Shown here in pieces: positions 26-12,114 of a stretch of DNA of 53,075 nt. How positions within the stretch are numbered: the first letter of the stretch is position 1; each line of letters begins with the position of its first letter. The notes beneath the pieces are model-generated. The model saw only the letters and a program-made list of their open reading frames with translations, made no database searches and was not told the DNA's origin. The DNA is from Flavobacteriaceae bacterium (GTDB lineage: Bacteria; Bacteroidota; Bacteroidia; Flavobacteriales; Flavobacteriaceae). The position numbers were made by a program, and so were the translations under genes. Location: the NCBI GenBank assembly GCA_036170135.1, contig JAVHOP010000010.1, positions 1 to 53,075 on the forward strand, written 5' to 3'.

Positions 26-57
26 AAAAAAACCTCTTAATAAGAGGTTTTTTTTTT
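26..57. terminator. Bidirectional rho-independent terminator hairpin downstream of the esterase gene
   Basis: AACCTCTT (31-38) pairs with AAGAGGTT (42-49) around a 3-nt loop. An A-run precedes it and a T-run (50-57) follows. Confidence 0.6.
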
Positions 58-162: not shown

Positions 163-1125
163 TTATTTTATCAGACCGAAAAATTTGGCAGTCCAATAAG
201 TAGCATGAAAATTTTTATCCACCGCAAATCTAGCCACATTTCCACCTTGCCGTTTTTCTGAGCCGGGATCTACAGCCATAGCGTGACCTAAATTATTAAT
301 TTCGTATTTTACAATAACGGGTCTATTATTTTTGAAATAGGTGGTTTTGGTAATGTCGCTATTTCCATTTAATTCAGGAGCTATTATTGGATCGGTATCT
401 ATTTTATGAATTCCTTTCCATTGCATTTCAATTATTTCGGCATTCTTGATATTCACAAACGGATCATCAATACCATGAAATATAACGACTTTTGGGTATT
501 CTCCCTTATAATTCAGATTATTATTGCTTATGGCAGCCACCCATTCTTCATTTGTTTTTTCAATCTTTCCCTGCATGGCCATATATCCCGTTGCTAAATC
601 AGTCGCGGCTTTAAAAGGAATTCCAGACAAAACAGCGCCTGAATTAAATAAATGAGGATAATTTGCTAATAGCACATTGGTCATGGCGCCACCTGCTGAA
701 AAACCAGAAATGAAAATTTTTGAAATATTAATATTATAATTTTTTATGGCATACTGAATCATTTCCATTATTGTTTCAGATTCTCCATCATTCTTTGAAA
801 CATCAATTTCATTAAACCAGTTAAAACATTTACTCAAATTATTCTCTATTTTTTGCTGTGGATACAATACCATAAAATCATTAGAATCCGCCAACGTATT
901 CCAACCGCTTTGGTCGGCAATTTCACTGGCCGTTTGAGAACAACCATGCAAAACAACAACCAATGGTATTTGCTTGTCAATATTTGTCGGCTTATAAACA
1001 TACATTTCCAAATTTCCTTTGTTGGCACCAAAGTTGGTGAGTTCAAATAAATTATTTTGTGAAATGAGCTGAAAACTCGTCAGCAACAAAAACAATCCAA
1101 TGATGTTTTGAACTTTTTTAATCAT
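163..1125 (-). CDS. Secreted esterase, PHB-depolymerase family (CE1-like / LpqC-type)
   Basis: N-terminal signal peptide MIKKVQNIIGLFLLLTSFQLISQ. Family motifs VVLHGCSQTA...GWN..A, NLSKCFNWF and the nucleophile elbow GFSAGG. Confidence 0.8.
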   Translation of the reverse strand: MIKKVQNIIGLFLLLTSFQLISQNNLFELTNFGANKGNLEMYVYKPTNIDKQIPLVVVLHGCSQTASEIADQSGWNTLADSNDFMVLYPQQKIENNLSKCFNWFNEIDVSKNDGESETIMEMIQYAIKNYNINISKIFISGFSAGGAMTNVLLANYPHLFNSGAVLSGIPFKAATDLATGYMAMQGKIEKTNEEWVAAISNNNLNYKGEYPKVVIFHGIDDPFVNIKNAEIIEMQWKGIHKIDTDPIIAPELNGNSDITKTTYFKNNRPVIVKYEINNLGHAMAVDPGSEKRQGGNVARFAVDKNFHATYWTAKFFGLIK

Positions 1126-1950: not shown

Positions 1951-3455
1951 TTGTTTTTTAATAATTTTCTATCAATTTTACCTGTGTCATTTTTAGGAAT
2001 CTCCTTTAGAAATTCGATATATTTTGGGATTTTAAATTTCGCCAATTTGACCTGGCAATAGTCCAATATTTCTTTTTCTGCAAGCGATTTTTCAGCTGTT
2101 ACAATAAATGCTTTGCCTACTTCACCCCATTTTTCATGGGGCACACCAATTACTGCAACCTCCAAAATGCCAGGATGTTCCTGAAGCACACGTTCAATTT
2201 CAGCCGGATAAACATTTTCGCCACCTGATATATACATATTTTTTATGCGATCTACCACAAACAAATAATCTTCATCATCGCGTATAACTATATCACCTGT
2301 ATAAAACCAGCCATCTTTTAAAGATTCTTTAGTTGCTTCCTCATTTTGCCAATAGCCAGGTGAAACCATCGGCCCTTTTAGCAACAATTCTCCTTTTTGA
2401 TTTTTACCGACTTTAGTTCCATTTTCATCAACAATTTTTGTTTGTACATAAAAATTTGGACGGCCAATAGATCCCTTTTTCCGAATGGCATCATCTTGAT
2501 GAAGAGACGTTAAATTAGGACCAACTTCAGTTAAACCATAACCCTGACGAATTAAAACGCCTTGTTTTTTCCATATTTCAATGAGCGGAATTGGCATGGC
2601 TTCACCACCCACAATACAGTACATCAAACTTGAAAAATTAGTTGTTTTAAATGAAGGCTCATCCGACATCATTTTTAACATTGTAGGAACTCCCATAAAC
2701 AAGGTAAACTGTTCTTCTTCAATCAAATTTAAAATTGTTCCAGAACAAAAAGATTTTATGATAACCAAACTTCCGCCGTGGTGAAGCACGGGAGTTACCA
2801 AAACATTCCATCCTCCGGTGTGAAATGGTGGCATACAATTGATGGTTTTTGTATTGGTGTTTATTACCAAACTAATTGCCGTGTTTATGCTGTTCCAAAA
2901 CAACATTTTATGAGTGTAGATGGCTCCTTTTGGAATCCCCGTTGTTCCTGATGTAAATAAGATAAAAATTGGATGGTTTTCATCAACCATATTGATGGGA
3001 AAATCAGCTTTATATTTTTCTTCTTCGAGATTTTTAAGGATTTTAGAAAAATCGGTAATCTCAAAAACCTCACCCAATTTGTTTTTCGAAAATTCCGTTT
3101 GAGAAACCTTTGTCTTGTAAACATTATCGTGTATAAGAATTTTCGGATCTGAAATTTTTATTAAATGATTTAATTCACTCGTGGTTAATCGATAATTTAA
3201 AGGAACTAAAATAACACCCGTTTTTTGTGCAGCCACAAAAAATAAAAGGTATTCCAAACAATTTTCAGCAACAAAAGCAATACGGTCACCCTTTATCAAA
3301 TTCAGCTGTTCTGTTAGATAAAAGGCCAATTTATTGCCTAATGAATTCAACTGTAGATAGCTTAGCATACTCCCCGTTTCATATTCCTTTAAAGCAATTT
3401 TGTGAGGCGAATAAACCGCCCATTTTGCCATCCAATCTTGCTGCCAAACTTCCAT
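1947..3455 (-). CDS. AMP-dependent synthetase/ligase (acyl- or aryl-CoA ligase family)
   Basis: Motifs FTSGTTGIPKG, GYGLTE, FYTGD and GKIDRK. I prefer the ATG at 3455, which sits 7 nt after the upstream TAA and is preceded by GGAGG. The ORF-track start at 3500 is a GTG giving a 38-nt overlap. Confidence 0.85.
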   Translation of the reverse strand: MEVWQQDWMAKWAVYSPHKIALKEYETGSMLSYLQLNSLGNKLAFYLTEQLNLIKGDRIAFVAENCLEYLLFFVAAQKTGVILVPLNYRLTTSELNHLIKISDPKILIHDNVYKTKVSQTEFSKNKLGEVFEITDFSKILKNLEEEKYKADFPINMVDENHPIFILFTSGTTGIPKGAIYTHKMLFWNSINTAISLVINTNTKTINCMPPFHTGGWNVLVTPVLHHGGSLVIIKSFCSGTILNLIEEEQFTLFMGVPTMLKMMSDEPSFKTTNFSSLMYCIVGGEAMPIPLIEIWKKQGVLIRQGYGLTEVGPNLTSLHQDDAIRKKGSIGRPNFYVQTKIVDENGTKVGKNQKGELLLKGPMVSPGYWQNEEATKESLKDGWFYTGDIVIRDDEDYLFVVDRIKNMYISGGENVYPAEIERVLQEHPGILEVAVIGVPHEKWGEVGKAFIVTAEKSLAEKEILDYCQVKLAKFKIPKYIEFLKEIPKNDTGKIDRKLLKNK

Positions 3456-3462
3456 AACCTCC

Positions 3463-4449
3463 TTATAATTTAAAGATTGCTCCCGCAAAAGCCAATCCAC
3501 CCCCAGAGCCTATAAATAATACGGTATCTCCTTCTTTAATTTTATTTTTTTGAATAGCTTCATAATAGGCCATTGGAATACAAGCCGATCCTGTATAGCC
3601 GTAATAATGCATGATGGTCGTTGTTTTATCCATCCCAATGCCTAAAATATCCAACGTTTCTTTGATGCTGTTTATATTTATTTGTGTAATAAAATAATGG
3701 TCAATATCGTGTGGCGTTAAATCAATCTGCTTACACAAATCTATAATCATATTGCTCCAAATAATTGAATTCAGCTCTTTGGGGAATTTTTTAACGAATT
3801 TCAACTGATGATCGCCGTTTTTAATTGAATCTTCTGTTGTTACATTTGCAGTTCCTCCTCCGTAAATGCCCATCCAACTGCTGTATTGGCCTTTTGTTTT
3901 TAATTGCGACGCCAACATTCCGGCACCGCTTTCATCTGATTTTAAAATGACGCCTGAAGCGCCATCAGCAAACAAGGTAACCGTTTTTTTATCGGTTTTA
4001 TTTAGGTGTTTAGACATCGCATAAGCGCCTAACACCAAAATATATTTATAATTTTCATCAGCCTGAATATATTTGGCAGCCACATCCAATGCAGTCACAA
4101 AGCCCGAACAAGCCGAATTTAAATCGAAAGTTCCCGCATTTACTGCCCCCAATCGGTCTTGCACCACAGAAGCTGTTGAAGGTGAAATATATTCCGGCGT
4201 ATCCGTCGATATAATTATTAAATCTAACTCTTCAACTTTTACGTTTGCATTTTTCAAAATTTCGTTCGCGGCGTTTACACATAAATCAGCTGTAGATTCA
4301 TTATCGGCACACCAACGTCTTTCATAAATTTGTACATTTTCACGCAACCAAGTATCTACGTCCTCCTTTAAAATTTCATTGAAATAACTGTTGGGAATTA
4401 CCTTTTTCGGCACATACATTCCTGAACCTATTATTTTTGCATTTCTCAT
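3463..4449 (-). CDS. FabH/KAS III-like thiolase-superfamily protein, apparently lacking the His/Asn decarboxylation residues
   Basis: Collinear with E. coli FabH over 328 aa. The Cys motif FDLNSACSGF is conserved, but FITQININ replaces VPHQANLR and YGYTGSAC replaces HGNTSAAS. Confidence 0.8.
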   Translation of the reverse strand: MRNAKIIGSGMYVPKKVIPNSYFNEILKEDVDTWLRENVQIYERRWCADNESTADLCVNAANEILKNANVKVEELDLIIISTDTPEYISPSTASVVQDRLGAVNAGTFDLNSACSGFVTALDVAAKYIQADENYKYILVLGAYAMSKHLNKTDKKTVTLFADGASGVILKSDESGAGMLASQLKTKGQYSSWMGIYGGGTANVTTEDSIKNGDHQLKFVKKFPKELNSIIWSNMIIDLCKQIDLTPHDIDHYFITQININSIKETLDILGIGMDKTTTIMHYYGYTGSACIPMAYYEAIQKNKIKEGDTVLFIGSGGGLAFAGAIFKL

Positions 4450-4469
4450 ATTTATGTTTTGTAGTTGTA

Positions 4470-5651: not shown

Positions 5652-7152
5652 TTTTTAATATATTTTTGTTGAGTAACCACGCAATAACTAAAGTAGGCAA
5701 AATTACTACAATTATTGATAATGTAGCTGTTACAGAAGGATTAGCGAAAGTAAACCCTGAGTTTGTAAATAGTTCATTTCCATAGAAGTATAACACAAAA
5801 TGGGTAATTACAGCAAGAATTGAAGCTGACCACAATAGTTTTATAGGTGAATTTTTCAACAAAACCCCTACTAACAATGGCGCTAAAGCTGCTAAAACCA
5901 ATCCATAAACCCCAACCTGTCCATAAATACCTAATAATTTAGGTGGATTTATATTAACAGCAAAAACTAAAATAGCAATTACAACAAGGACTACATGACT
6001 CGCCCTAAATGCCAGTTTCATTTTTTGTTCTTGGTTTATTTTCTTTTTACTGAATTTATCGATTAAATTTATAACTAAATCATTTGCAGTGATGGTAGAA
6101 ATGCTAACCAACAAGCCATCTAATGTTGACATTGCTGCCGCTAACAAAACAATGCTGACTAATGTAAAAGTCCAATCTGGGAAAACATTCATTAAATAAA
6201 CAGTCATCACCAAATCTTGTCTAAACTTGCCTGTTGAAGCATCAATTAGTTGATTCGGATCAACTGCAATGTGTGCAAAGAAACCTGCAGAAACTAATAA
6301 TAAGAACAATAATAGAATGATACCGACTACAATAATATAATTTCGAACATCTTTATTTGTTTTTACATATAAAGCTTTTGTTAAAATATGGGGCTGGCAA
6401 ACCAAAGCAGCACCAATAAAAAATCCTGCAACATAGGTTGAAAAGAAATCATTAAACAATTTCCCAGCAGGATTAATAAGTTTTAACAAGTTTGGATCCT
6501 GCTGTGAAATTTGCTCCCAAAATCCAGGATTATGGTTATTCATTATCAACTCGATCCCTGTCCATAATATTGCGACAGATGCAAGAATCATTAAAATACC
6601 TTGAAAAACATTGGTATAAACATGGGCATACGTTCCGCCCAAAAAGACGTAGCCCGTAACAAAAATCAACGTAATTAATAGAGCTGTAATATTGTTTACA
6701 CCAAGCAGTTTTTGCATCACTATAGAAATTCCGCCAACCAACAACACCACAAAAGCAAAAGATAATAAATTAATAAAGGCAAAATACAATGAAAAATTTT
6801 TAGATTGATAGCGTTTTCCAATCCAATCTGGAATGGTTAAAGCTTTCATTTCATCTCCTAATGACCTAAACTTAAATGATAATATAATTAGCATCATCAT
6901 AAATCCTGAATAGGTTCCTAAAACCATACTAATCCATGCCGATAATCCATCTACATAAATAAACCCCGGATTTATAATAAACGTTGCCGCAGATGCTGTA
7001 CTTGCAGCCAGAGTAATTCCAACAACAATTGGCGATAAATCGCCATTTCCTATTGCAAAACTGCTAAAACCATTCGTTTTTTTATAGCCAACCCATCCTA
7101 AATAAGAAGTCCCTATAAAATAAATTGAAAAAAGTGTCCATGCTAATATCAT
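5644..7152 (-). CDS. Sodium:solute symporter (SSS) family transporter
   Basis: 502 aa with about 13 hydrophobic segments and overall resemblance to SSS/ActP/PutP-type permeases. It overlaps both neighbours. Confidence 0.7.
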   Translation of the reverse strand: MILAWTLFSIYFIGTSYLGWVGYKKTNGFSSFAIGNGDLSPIVVGITLAASTASAATFIINPGFIYVDGLSAWISMVLGTYSGFMMMLIILSFKFRSLGDEMKALTIPDWIGKRYQSKNFSLYFAFINLLSFAFVVLLVGGISIVMQKLLGVNNITALLITLIFVTGYVFLGGTYAHVYTNVFQGILMILASVAILWTGIELIMNNHNPGFWEQISQQDPNLLKLINPAGKLFNDFFSTYVAGFFIGAALVCQPHILTKALYVKTNKDVRNYIIVVGIILLLFLLLVSAGFFAHIAVDPNQLIDASTGKFRQDLVMTVYLMNVFPDWTFTLVSIVLLAAAMSTLDGLLVSISTITANDLVINLIDKFSKKKINQEQKMKLAFRASHVVLVVIAILVFAVNINPPKLLGIYGQVGVYGLVLAALAPLLVGVLLKNSPIKLLWSASILAVITHFVLYFYGNELFTNSGFTFANPSVTATLSIIVVILPTLVIAWLLNKNILKNE

Positions 7153-7997
7153 TCTAATTTAATTATAAATTTATTAATTACATTAACGGTCTGTTTTGCC
7201 CCTTCAGAAAACAACATCGTTACATGATTCCCTGCTACTGGGAAATAAGTGCAATTCAACATCATATTTACTGTTTCAACAGCATTTTGTTTTGTTACAA
7301 TAAACTGATCATTAACAAAAGGTTCTGTAGCGTTTATAACAATTGTAGGTTGTTTAATTTGACAGATTAACTTTGTCCAATTAATATTAGAATCTTGAGT
7401 TGCTTCAATGGCTTGTTGGATATGTTCAACCTTTGATCTAGGTTCAATTCCATTTTCAGTCTCGATACAATCAGCTAAGTAAAAATCTTCTATTTTAGAA
7501 TTCCACTGCCCTTTTAAAAATGGTGTATTTTTCATATCAGTTAAATATTCACCATAATTTGTCCAATTTTTATACAACCTTCCTGTTGATGAAGGCTTAA
7601 CCATTTCGATAATTTTTGGATTCATCTTAGCAGCTACATCTATTAAAACGATTTTTAAAAACCTATTTGGAAAATGTGCAGCTAAATAAATAGTTATTAA
7701 TCCTCCAAATGAATGTCCTGCCAAAATTGCATTATCAATTTTTAAAACATCCATTAAACCAATGATGTCAAGTGCATGTTCTTTGATAGTATATCCAGAA
7801 TTAGGCTTATCGCTTAAACCTCGACCACGCAGATCAATAGAAATAACTCTATAATCTTTTATTAAAGCTATATAACTACCAAAAGAATTTGCATTAGCAC
7901 TCAAGCCATGTAATAAAATTAATACTGGTTTAAGATTCTTGTTTTTTTCTAAATAATGAATTCTATTGCCATTAGTTTTAATAAAATACTGCTTCAT
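7149..7997 (-). CDS. Cytoplasmic alpha/beta-fold hydrolase
   Basis: The HG oxyanion motif (LILLHGL), GHSFGG nucleophile elbow and absence of a signal peptide. It resembles the enol-lactonase / dehalogenase / epoxide-hydrolase branch. Confidence 0.8.
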   Translation of the reverse strand: MKQYFIKTNGNRIHYLEKNKNLKPVLILLHGLSANANSFGSYIALIKDYRVISIDLRGRGLSDKPNSGYTIKEHALDIIGLMDVLKIDNAILAGHSFGGLITIYLAAHFPNRFLKIVLIDVAAKMNPKIIEMVKPSSTGRLYKNWTNYGEYLTDMKNTPFLKGQWNSKIEDFYLADCIETENGIEPRSKVEHIQQAIEATQDSNINWTKLICQIKQPTIVINATEPFVNDQFIVTKQNAVETVNMMLNCTYFPVAGNHVTMLFSEGAKQTVNVINKFIIKLE

Positions 7998-10531: not shown

Positions 10532-11092
10532 TTAGATTAAGTTAGTTATATACTTTGTTTTCATTATATTAGAGGCTTTTTTTAATAATATTTCATTATG
10601 ATTTGATAAATAAGAAGCGAAAACACCTACCCTAAATATTTCAAATTCAAAAGATTCACTGTTGGGATTTTTGTACCCCATTTCTTTCATCAATTCATAA
10701 ACCTTACGTCTAAAATTCTTAGAGTGTTCAAGAACTTTATTTAAAATAAGTTCTTTAGTATCTGGTTGATATAGCAAAGCCATATATAAATCCCAGAAAG
10801 GCCTCTCATCTTTTAATGACTTAAAAAAGACATCTATTATATTTTCCAATTCTTCTCTAGGAGTTAAACTTGGCTTTTGATTAATTATCAAATCAACTTT
10901 TAAAAGAATTAAATCTATCGTTGCATCAAGTAATTCCCTTTTAGTACCAAAATGATAGAATAATAAACCAGATGAAATTTTGGCTTTCTTACAAATTTCA
11001 GCTGTAGATGTCTTATGATAACCGTTTTTAGCAAACATTTTCATTGCGACTTGTAGGATATTTATCTTTGCACTTTTCTTTTCTGTTTCCAT
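10532..11092 (-). CDS. TetR/AcrR family transcriptional regulator
   Basis: N-terminal HTH ILQVAMKMFAKNGYHKTSTAEICKKAKISSGLLFYHFGTKRELL in 186 aa. It is the first gene of the cluster, 11 nt upstream of the TBDR. Confidence 0.9.
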   Translation of the reverse strand: METEKKSAKINILQVAMKMFAKNGYHKTSTAEICKKAKISSGLLFYHFGTKRELLDATIDLILLKVDLIINQKPSLTPREELENIIDVFFKSLKDERPFWDLYMALLYQPDTKELILNKVLEHSKNFRRKVYELMKEMGYKNPNSESFEFEIFRVGVFASYLSNHNEILLKKASNIMKTKYITNLI

Positions 11093-11298: not shown

Positions 11299-12114
11299 TT
11301 ATGCTAGAAGAGCATAAGCAACCAACCATAAAATTGGAATACCTTCAACCCAAAAGGCGCTATAATATTTGTTTTGATTTGTGGATGATTTAAGCAATAA
11401 AAATCCTAAACAAACAGCTATCAAACCATCAATCCATAAATATTTTGTCTTTATATAAAAACAGTCAATAGCTAAAAATAATCCCAAAAATATCAATCCC
11501 AATATTTTAGTGTTCTTTACGCCTAGCCAAATTGGCAACGTTAGTAATGATTCAGAATCATATAATACATCTCTGATATCGAACGATAATGTTAAAGCAA
11601 CTACAAATAAAAACCGCTGAAAAAATAACCATAAACCAGTATTGTTAAATATTCCGTATTGCATCAAAGGAAATAAAACGGTGATTCCAGCCCACGAAAA
11701 AGCAATGAGAAATATCTTAATTGCTGGTAAATTTCTGAGGTTAATATTTTTTGAAATGAAAGGAGGCAATACATATAATAGGGTTAAAAAGGCAAACGGA
11801 ATTAAGATAAACAAAGCCTGTAAACGTATTTTGAAAATCAGATAAACACAAGCCAAAAATGATAAAATACTCAACAAAATCAAATCGGTCTTATTGCTTT
11901 TCAACCATTTAAAATACCACGACTTGACCTGTTTTAAACGCGTTAAGCGAATATAATTATAAGATAATATCGTAGCAAAAAACACAAATAACGGAACTGT
12001 ATTATCACTGTTTTTACAATCTAACAAGGTTATTTTAGTTAGACTAAAACTGGATAATGCCACATGAATATTGCTAAAAATATAAAAATTGAAAATTTTT
12101 TTTAAAAGGCTCAT
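11299..12114 (-). CDS. Polytopic membrane protein with distant UbiA-prenyltransferase-like features
   Basis: About 8 hydrophobic segments. The motifs LRNLPAIKIFLIAFSW and FDIRDVLYD resemble the UbiA-family second Asp-rich region. No first NxxxDxxxD motif was seen. Confidence 0.45.
   Translation of the reverse strand: MSLLKKIFNFYIFSNIHVALSSFSLTKITLLDCKNSDNTVPLFVFFATILSYNYIRLTRLKQVKSWYFKWLKSNKTDLILLSILSFLACVYLIFKIRLQALFILIPFAFLTLLYVLPPFISKNINLRNLPAIKIFLIAFSWAGITVLFPLMQYGIFNNTGLWLFFQRFLFVVALTLSFDIRDVLYDSESLLTLPIWLGVKNTKILGLIFLGLFLAIDCFYIKTKYLWIDGLIAVCLGFLLLKSSTNQNKYYSAFWVEGIPILWLVAYALLA

Follow-up and report, generated by a model that had tools for sequence, protein, structure and literature searches.

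Closest Described Systems and the KAS_TY Gene

The β-ketoacyl-acyl carrier protein (ACP) synthase III (KAS III) FabH (EC 2.3.1.180; Escherichia coli structure 1hn9, Staphylococcus aureus structure 1zow) forms its acyl-Cys intermediate in a first half-reaction that uses a backbone oxyanion hole and in which His and Asn play no role; these two residues stabilize the malonyl-derived enolate (PMC10054515). The 53,075-nt stretch analyzed here (contig JAVHOP010000010.1 of a Flavobacteriaceae bacterium; hereafter, the window) encodes a protein, P0001, that shares with FabH a common fold, the nucleophilic Cys, the glycine-loop oxyanion hole, and a Trp and basic residues on the coenzyme A (CoA) side. 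However, Thr occupies the position of His244 and Tyr that of Asn274 (E. coli FabH numbering), and the protein and its relatives, designated KAS_TY after this Thr/Tyr pair, further differ from FabH by the replacements of Phe304 by Ser, Arg249 by Asn and Phe87' by Ser, by the gain of Asp83, by forming a separate clade, and by a catabolic rather than fatty acid biosynthesis (fab) gene context.

Thiolases (EC 2.3.1.16 and 2.3.1.9) belong to the same superfamily. In profile alignments made with hhalign their Cys nucleophile is co-located with that of KAS_TY within the N-terminal half, and they act at the pathway position proposed here for KAS_TY, after 3-hydroxyacyl-CoA dehydrogenase. In contrast to thiolases, P0001 lacks the C-terminal motifs NEAF/HDCF, GHP and CxG, and the phylogenetic tree derives KAS_TY from FabH. 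When its profile was aligned with those of a classic thiolase and of the SCP2-type thiolase encoded next to it, the match covered the N-terminal half or nothing, leaving the C-terminal half unaligned; other residues could still provide a thiolase-like function.

Other members of the fold depart from decarboxylative condensation. OleA, PpyS and the LstAB heterodimer are FabH-derived and act on acyl-CoA without malonyl decarboxylation; the superfamilies of OleB, OleC and OleD, namely α/β hydrolase, AMP-ligase and short-chain dehydrogenase/reductase (SDR), match the neighbors of KAS_TY. In OleA and PpyS, Cys-His-Asn is retained and complemented by a Glu of the partner subunit (PMC4578411), whereas KAS_TY has Ser there and neither His nor Asn; its SDR is of the FabG type and its context is one of import and catabolism. 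The Glu and Cys of 3-hydroxy-3-methylglutaryl-CoA (HMG-CoA) synthase, a Glu-Cys-His enzyme, are matched by Asp83 and Cys114 of KAS_TY, but there is no His at the His233/His244 position and the family scores are very weak. CerJ, DpsC, ChlB3/ChlB6 and PqsBC likewise put the KAS III fold to uses beyond decarboxylative condensation, and none of them is a close sequence relative of P0001 in a search of Protein Data Bank (PDB) sequences. A catalytic His is kept in these enzymes (PqsC, Cys-His; CerJ, Cys-His-Asp), which are encoded in secondary-metabolite clusters. Full-text literature searches, including ones aimed at the family or the gene cluster, found no paper on KAS_TY; for a member of the thiolase/KAS III superfamily, both its catalytic constellation and its role in a pathway appear to be undescribed.

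Replacement of the Catalytic His-Asn Pair

The KAS_TY gene of the window starts with ATG, has an intact reading frame and encodes 328 aa. Both halves of the product were recognized by Pfam (ACP_syn_III and ACP_syn_III_C, E-values of 2.5e-24 and 1.1e-23), while the NCBIfam models for FabH scored under their cut-offs (PRK09352, 248.5 vs. 249; TIGR00747, 218.2 vs. 292.1). Sequence identity to FabHs is 29–31%, the closest PDB sequence found by phmmer being S. aureus FabH 1zow (30% identity, E-value 8e-49), and no solved structure from the KAS_TY clade was found in the PDB sequence search. An AlphaFold2 model of P0001, built from a 20-sequence family alignment (pLDDT 88.5, pTM 0.90), is less confident at one stretch only, approximately residues 190–230, which contains the invariant motif WMGIYGGG. 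Foldseek matched this model only to FabH, BioZ and PqsD structures (TM 0.85–0.93), with FabH structures as the best matches (TM 0.86–0.93).

Two alignments, made by phmmer against the solved FabHs and by MAFFT with the E. coli FabH sequence of NC_000913, agree in equating Cys114, Thr255 and Tyr285 of P0001 with Cys112, His244 and Asn274 of E. coli FabH. In the phmmer alignment ITQININ stands opposite IPHQANI, and YGYTGSA opposite YGNTSAA. The first-pass annotation of this DNA had reached the same assignment by eye from four motifs, all of which are present, and both alignments bear it out. It had also asked whether the Thr/Tyr pair is conserved in orthologues, and this is the case: among 121 close relatives, Cys114, Tyr285 and Ser315 are present in all 121 and Thr255 in 120, the remaining one having Ser. 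The conservation of Cys114, Thr255 and Tyr285 in these relatives indicates that the replacement is neither a sequencing error nor the mark of a pseudogene. For a wider comparison, an exhaustive search was clustered at 50%, giving 17 representatives of the clade and 101 of ordinary FabHs. Thr at position 255 and Tyr at position 285 occur in 17/17 clade representatives, while the FabH representatives have His and Asn, respectively, in 101/101.

The same annotation had named a His and an Asn supplied from shifted positions as the outcome that would overturn its view, and no such residues were found. His214 (116/121 close relatives) and His251 (90/121) were considered as compensating residues, but neither is clade-specific or invariant, and His in the 214 column is present in about one third of ordinary FabHs. 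Pairwise BLASTP alignment placed His248 opposite His244 by means of an 8-residue gap; this pairing was rejected as an artifact, since relatives vary at His248 (Lys, Asp and others) and Thr255 is the residue on which phmmer, MAFFT and the strand boundaries of the model agree.

P0001 keeps the CoA-side residues Trp34 and Lys154. The situation is different for Arg249, the main ACP-docking residue of FabH: this column holds Arg in 85 of the 101 FabH representatives, and Glu, Ser, Asn or Gln, but almost never Arg, in the clade (Asn260 in P0001). Since the His-Asn pair is replaced, no shifted His or Asn substitutes for it and the ACP-docking Arg is lost, canonical malonyl-ACP decarboxylative condensation by P0001 appears very unlikely, in agreement with the doubt already expressed in the first-pass annotation.

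A Coordinated Rebuilding of the Active Site

About 15 positions are fixed in the clade representatives and rare in those of FabH: Asp83, Ser89, Tyr143, Met145, Gly194, Pro223, Asn227, Trp231, Thr255, Met280, Tyr285, Gly287, Cys290, Met293 and Ser315. This pattern shows that the site is not merely "Cys-only," the term used previously, but rebuilt as a coordinated set. The term is apt in that Cys is kept without the His-Asn pair, but it passes over a new set of invariant residues that includes Asp83. At the position of FabH Phe304, in the glycine loop, Ser315 is conserved in 16/17 clade representatives, compared with Phe in 85/101 FabH representatives. Together with Thr255 and Tyr285, this replacement covers the entire malonyl-decarboxylation and enolate site of FabH. 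The second clade-specific Cys, Cys290, was found in 17/17 clade representatives and in 120/121 close relatives.

Position 83 is Asp in 16/17 clade representatives and usually Val, Ser, Thr, Ile or Ala in the 101 FabH representatives. In an hhalign comparison with HMG-CoA synthase from a related genome (probability 78.5%), Asp83 pairs with the Glu of the GTES motif, the general base of that enzyme; no HMG-CoA synthase was found when searched for in the genome from which the window derives. A reaction resembling that of HMG-CoA synthase could thus be envisaged, in which Asp83 would deprotonate the acyl group bound to Cys114 and the resulting enolate would add to a keto substrate supplied by the SDR, the product then being released by hydrolysis; in another version, Asp83 would activate water and the protein would be an acyl-CoA hydrolase. 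Apart from the pairing with the GTES Glu, the clade specificity of Asp83 and its spacing of 31 from Cys114, near that of Glu79 and Cys111 in bacterial HMG-CoA synthase, are consistent with this chemistry. However, HMG-CoA synthase needs a His at the FabH His244 position, where KAS_TY has Thr, and its models score just 33–59 bits on P0001 against cut-offs of 244–360. No lyase or reductase that could process a branched product further is encoded in the gene module, and a thioesterase next to an ATP-spending CoA ligase would be futile. We regard both versions as decidedly improbable.

Ser89 lies at the position of Phe87', the residue that closes the acyl channel of E. coli FabH. In Mycobacterium tuberculosis FabH, Thr at the Phe87 position opens this channel (PMC12625853). 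The additional Glu of OleA (E117) and PpyS (E105) is found 24–26 residues before the Cys (PMC4578411), a spacing that corresponds to about the position of Ser89 in P0001. By this published spacing, an OleA-type Glu was sought and rejected: the position holds Ser89, and so P0001 is not an OleA-type enzyme.

Phylogeny and Distribution of the KAS_TY Family

A word-indexed protein search with P0001 returned more than 5,600 matches at E ≤ 1e-20. The best 120 of them are 62–94% identical to P0001 and come from Bacteroidota, Saprospiraceae and Ignavibacteriota, and in the exhaustive search the Cys/Thr/Tyr/Cys/Ser signature persists down to about 32% identity. Members named in the records include Lutibacter (94% identical), Caldisericia and Anaerolineales; the window itself is probably from a Lutibacter-like flavobacterium. 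Their public names are generic ("ketoacyl-ACP synthase III"). In a FastTree phylogeny of 127 representatives, for which the support values are SH-like only, every protein with Tyr285 falls into one clade (support of 99) nested among His/Asn FabHs, which indicates one origin. Judging by this tree and the records, KAS_TY is a monophyletic and widespread offshoot of KAS III, present in Bacteroidota, Ignavibacteriota, Caldisericia and Anaerolineales. Its presence is patchy, as is typical of an accessory gene: 43 of the 301 genomes sampled from the phylum carry it, and so does 1 of 22 others from the family to which the window belongs.

These data also bear on the public annotation, according to which P0001 would be an ordinary β-ketoacyl-ACP synthase III starting fatty acid synthesis. 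The fold, the 29–31% identity to FabHs and the near-threshold NCBIfam scores speak for such a function, but it is hardly credible given that His244, Asn274, Phe304 and Arg249 are all replaced, that no fab genes lie nearby and that the distribution is that of an accessory gene. Moreover, two canonical FabH genes with HQAN and GNT motifs, one of them adjoining accC, are located elsewhere in the same genome, and P0001 is therefore not the FabH of the cell. The genome also contains a third KAS III-like gene.

Some distant members of the family occur as tandem KAS III-like pairs (L013:8013-9026 and L012:327-1319). Both copies at L012 carry the Cys/Thr/Tyr/Cys/Ser signature. In the second copy at L013 the Cys is kept, Leu-His occupies the 255/256 columns and His the 285 column. 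This arrangement hints at heterodimers in which a third kind of site would occur. At one related locus (L059:4418-5416), a further and very divergent KAS-like open reading frame (ORF), 23% identical to P0001, is present between the genes for an outer-membrane barrel and a ligase.

Gene Cluster in the Window

The KAS_TY gene is part of a same-strand run coding for, in order, a TetR regulator, a TonB-dependent receptor, an α/β hydrolase, a symporter, an SCP2-type thiolase, KAS_TY, a CoA ligase, an SDR and an esterase (Table 1). The thiolase has its closest PDB match in 6esq, an archaeal acetoacetyl-CoA thiolase. The best PDB matches of the CoA ligase are feruloyl-CoA or fatty-acyl-CoA synthetase (8wev/8weu) and FadD13. 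Its ORF was listed from a GTG at 3500, a position that implies a 38-nt overlap with the KAS_TY gene; the likelier start is the in-frame ATG at 3455, which leaves a gap of 7 nt. The SDR is most similar in the PDB to 2et6, a (3R)-hydroxyacyl-CoA dehydrogenase. With the FabG-like SDR encoded next to KAS_TY in other phyla it shares only about 30% identity, and its gene is placed after the ligase gene rather than beside the KAS_TY gene; it looks like a non-orthologous replacement that arrived together with the insertion of the SCP2-type thiolase. Past the esterase gene, a perfect hairpin with a T-run likely marks where the transcription unit ends. A 271-aa ORF at 11299-12114, upstream of the TetR gene, has no Pfam match.

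Table 1. Positions in the window of the KAS_TY gene, its discussed codons and the genes of the surrounding cluster
Feature	Position	Strand	Basis and remarks
KAS III-fold gene of the KAS_TY (Thr/Tyr) clade	3463..4449	-	P0001, 328 aa; Pfam, NCBIfam, AlphaFold2
Asp83 codon GAT, clade-specific acidic residue, 31 residues before Cys114	4201..4203	-	Alignments
Ser89 codon, at E. coli FabH Phe87' position	4183..4185	-	Residue comparison
Cys114 codon TGT, acyl-accepting nucleophile, = E. coli FabH Cys112	4108..4110	-	Alignments
Thr255 codon ACA, at FabH His244 position	3685..3687	-	Alignments
Asn260 codon, at FabH Arg249 position	3670..3672	-	Residue comparison
Tyr285 codon TAT, at FabH Asn274 position	3595..3597	-	Alignments
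Cys290 codon, second clade-specific Cys; Ser/Thr in FabH	3580..3582	-	Residue comparison
Ser315 codon in GSGGG, at FabH Phe304 (GFGGG) position	3505..3507	-	Residue comparison
TetR-family regulator, cluster head	10532..11092	-	Pfam TetR_N
TonB-dependent receptor P0008	8073..10520	-	CarboxypepD_reg and Plug domains
Cytoplasmic α/β hydrolase P0005, Ser nucleophile (GHSFGG)	7149..7997	-	Pfam/NCBIfam
Sodium:solute symporter P0004	5644..7152	-	Pfam SSF; kept in most related loci
SCP2-type thiolase P0002	4470..5651	-	Pfam and NCBIfam; Cys87, HDCF and GHP motifs intact
Acyl-CoA ligase P0003	1947..3455	-	AMP-binding domains
Classical SDR P0006	1156..1950	-	Pfam/NCBIfam
Secreted esterase P0007, polyhydroxybutyrate (PHB)-depolymerase/CE1 family, signal peptide	163..1125	-	Pfam Esterase_PHB; best PDB match 8daj
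13-bp perfect hairpin and T-run, flanking A/T runs, past esterase gene	26..54	-	Sole strong terminator-like site in first 11.4 kb

Gene Neighborhoods in Relatives

Neighborhoods were compared by tblastn, with the window proteins and a few reference ORFs as queries, in 25 loci comprising the window, 20-kb neighborhoods from 20 further genomes and four metagenomic loci. Three more loci, from Caldisericia, Anaerolineales and a soda-lake bacterium, were read from called genes, bringing the total to 27 loci of relatives. Within the tblastn set, a FabG-like SDR is nearly always encoded directly beside KAS_TY, often with a shared stop/start, and a CoA ligase gene is present in 24/25 loci. SDR partners in loci other than the window score as FabG (NF004198, 306 bits vs. 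a cut-off of 296). One or two α/β hydrolases are encoded, one a lipoprotein and one cytoplasmic; a periplasmic lipoprotein hydrolase in relatives matches the PHB depolymerase 8ynv (1e-23). An inner-membrane importer, either a sodium:solute symporter or a major facilitator superfamily protein, accompanies KAS_TY, and in the outer membrane there is either a TonB receptor or a small lipoprotein paired with an AlgE-like barrel. The regulator differs among loci, being of the TetR or MarR family or a LytTR two-component system. The same core recurs in the Caldisericia, Anaerolineales and soda-lake loci, where the importers are Liv-type ABC systems and, in two of the three, a CoA-transferase of the butyryl-CoA:acetate type takes the place of the ligase. 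This context suggests that KAS_TY acts on CoA thioesters within an import-and-breakdown module, most likely cleaving or transferring acyl-CoA units and not serving fatty acid synthesis.

The locus of an 81%-identical relative, L072, has the nine-gene order of the window plus a second AMP-ligase gene (2931-4463) between those of the TonB receptor and the α/β hydrolase. The TonB receptor gives way to a pair of proteins in loci of Ignavibacteriota and of many Bacteroidota (L002:12110-14281; the same pair at L046-L064). The first, a lipoprotein of 177 aa, has a weak lipocalin-like match; the second, of 521 aa, carries a signal peptide, ends in Phe, lies near "Alginate export" barrels in the Atlas and belongs to no Pfam family.

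A thiolase of any kind is encoded in 5 of the 25 tblastn loci, the window included, and in none of the other 20; nor is there one among the called genes of the Caldisericia, Anaerolineales and soda-lake loci. The SCP2-type thiolase was found only in the window and in L072. In the first-pass annotation, KAS_TY had been suggested as a non-canonical or non-catalytic partner of this thiolase, whose gene ends 20 nt upstream. The spacing is correct (4450-4469), the pair is kept in the 81%-identical relative, and the thiolase match 6esq reportedly functions as part of a complex that includes a KAS III-related enzyme. By analogy with PqsB and PqsC, or with HMG-CoA synthase and the archaeal thiolase, KAS_TY could then be an auxiliary subunit. 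As a trait of the family, however, this partnership fails: the SCP2-type thiolase is confined to the Lutibacter-like lineage, so that the adjacency is lineage-specific, most loci, among them the three from other phyla, have no thiolase, and the conserved neighbor is the FabG-like SDR. The cluster contains no DUF35-type scaffold ORF. A non-catalytic role is also unlikely in view of the invariant Cys114, the strongly conserved rebuilt pocket and the 62–94% identity maintained across phyla. Taken as an explanation of KAS_TY, an auxiliary role beside the thiolase is highly improbable.

Possible Reaction and Pathway

We tentatively favor, at somewhat short of an even chance, the reading that KAS_TY is a CoA-dependent, non-decarboxylative, thiolase-like enzyme that cleaves the 3-oxoacyl-CoA product of the SDR, within a module for breaking down esters of (R)-3-hydroxy acids. 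In this pathway, the esterases or α/β hydrolases would release a hydroxy acid; the most plausible candidate is an (R)-3-hydroxyalkanoate derived from polyesters or oligo-esters. The acid would be activated by the CoA ligase or, in anaerobes, by the CoA-transferase of the butyryl-CoA:acetate type, and the SDR, resembling FabG or (3R)-hydroxyacyl-CoA dehydrogenase, would oxidize the hydroxyacyl-CoA to 3-oxoacyl-CoA, the C-C bond of which KAS_TY would then cleave with CoA in the manner of a thiolase. Because no thiolase gene is present in 20 of the 25 tblastn loci and in the three called-gene loci, KAS_TY is the only candidate of the thiolase superfamily there for the step following the SDR. The SCP2-type thiolase added in the Lutibacter-like lineage may cover other chain types.

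At the active site, Cys114 would attack the 3-keto carbon, with the backbone oxyanion hole formed by the NH groups of Cys114 and Gly317 retained. The leaving acetyl-CoA enolate might be held and protonated by the hydroxyls of Tyr285 and Thr255, with Asp83 as a possible acid/base, and the shortened acyl group would be released from Cys114 by CoA. Tyr285 and Thr255, located where FabH stabilizes an enolate (PMC10054515), or else Asp83 could donate the proton for which thiolase relies on a second Cys.

(R)-3-Hydroxyalkanoates, which could derive from polyhydroxyalkanoates, other oligo-esters or 3-hydroxy-acid lipids, appear to be the most coherent substrates, on modest evidence: the esterases of the PHB-depolymerase family, the PHB-depolymerase-like hydrolase match and the C4-type CoA-transferase.

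Several points weigh against this assignment. The specific reaction is drawn from the gene neighborhood alone, and the profile alignment to thiolases extends over the N-terminal half only. Thiolases require a general acid/base, for which the KAS_TY candidates, Tyr285 and Asp83, are predicted only; by published superpositions, Tyr285 would correspond to His348 and Ser315 to Cys378 of thiolase. In the five tblastn loci with a true thiolase, the window among them, a second thiolytic enzyme looks redundant, and housekeeping thiolases could serve the loci that have no thiolase gene. The substrate class is uncertain because the PHB-type esterase represented by P0007 occurs in three loci only (the window, L001 and L072), and the kinship of the ligase to feruloyl-CoA or fatty-acyl-CoA synthetases would fit aromatic or long-chain acids too.

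The most serious alternative, already raised in the first-pass annotation, is acyl transfer, in which Cys114 would move an acyl group from acyl-CoA to an oxygen or another nucleophile, or in reverse, and no C-C bond would be made or broken; in one version, CoA-dependent opening of oligo-ester bonds would yield hydroxyacyl-CoA directly. Asp83 or Tyr285 could activate the hydroxyl or thiol, and the module is rich in ester-handling enzymes. However, known KAS III acyltransferases keep a His base (CerJ, Cys-His-Asp; DpsC, Ser-His-Asp), which KAS_TY lacks at that position, and no such acyltransferase was among the PDB sequence matches at E ≤ 1e-10. The half of FabH chemistry that KAS_TY keeps is precisely transacylation onto Cys with a backbone oxyanion hole (PMC10054515), and acyltransferases with the KAS III fold exist, ChlB3 being an example (PMC9573744). 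That KAS_TY has been closely paired with a FabG-like SDR since ancient times points instead to the chemistry of 3-oxo/3-hydroxy thioesters, and we consider acyl transfer rather unlikely.

Returning to thiolase-like cleavage, its furthest consequence would be a new catalytic class: a FabH descendant that has re-invented thiolase chemistry with a Cys114/Asp83/Tyr285-Thr255 site and is paired with a FabG-like dehydrogenase in a module that runs the initiation of type II fatty acid synthesis (FAS-II) backwards. Such a class is possible, although on present evidence somewhat doubtful. A bolder variant of it, in which the energy of oligo-ester bonds opened by KAS_TY with CoA would be conserved as hydroxyacyl-CoA, is improbable.

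Implications for Metabolism and Annotation

Public records give the name "ketoacyl-ACP synthase III" to thousands of proteins, corresponding to the large set of matches to P0001, that are probably not initiators of fatty acid synthesis. This misannotation touches metabolic reconstructions of heterotrophs from sediments and the sea, among them Bacteroidota and Ignavibacteriota. As a tool, KAS_TY could find application in non-decarboxylative C-C chemistry on CoA esters. If the proposed chemistry is true, it would represent a new solution within the thiolase superfamily, in which Asp, Tyr and Thr assist the Cys in place of His/Asn or His/Cys, and a function would be assigned to a conserved and so far unexplained import-and-breakdown module. 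Ordinary β-oxidation is (S)-specific and does not handle (R)-3-hydroxyalkanoates. The module would let bacteria of at least four phyla catabolize these compounds and their oligo- and polyesters, and it may matter for the natural turnover of polyhydroxyalkanoates, other polyesters or 3-hydroxy-acid lipids.

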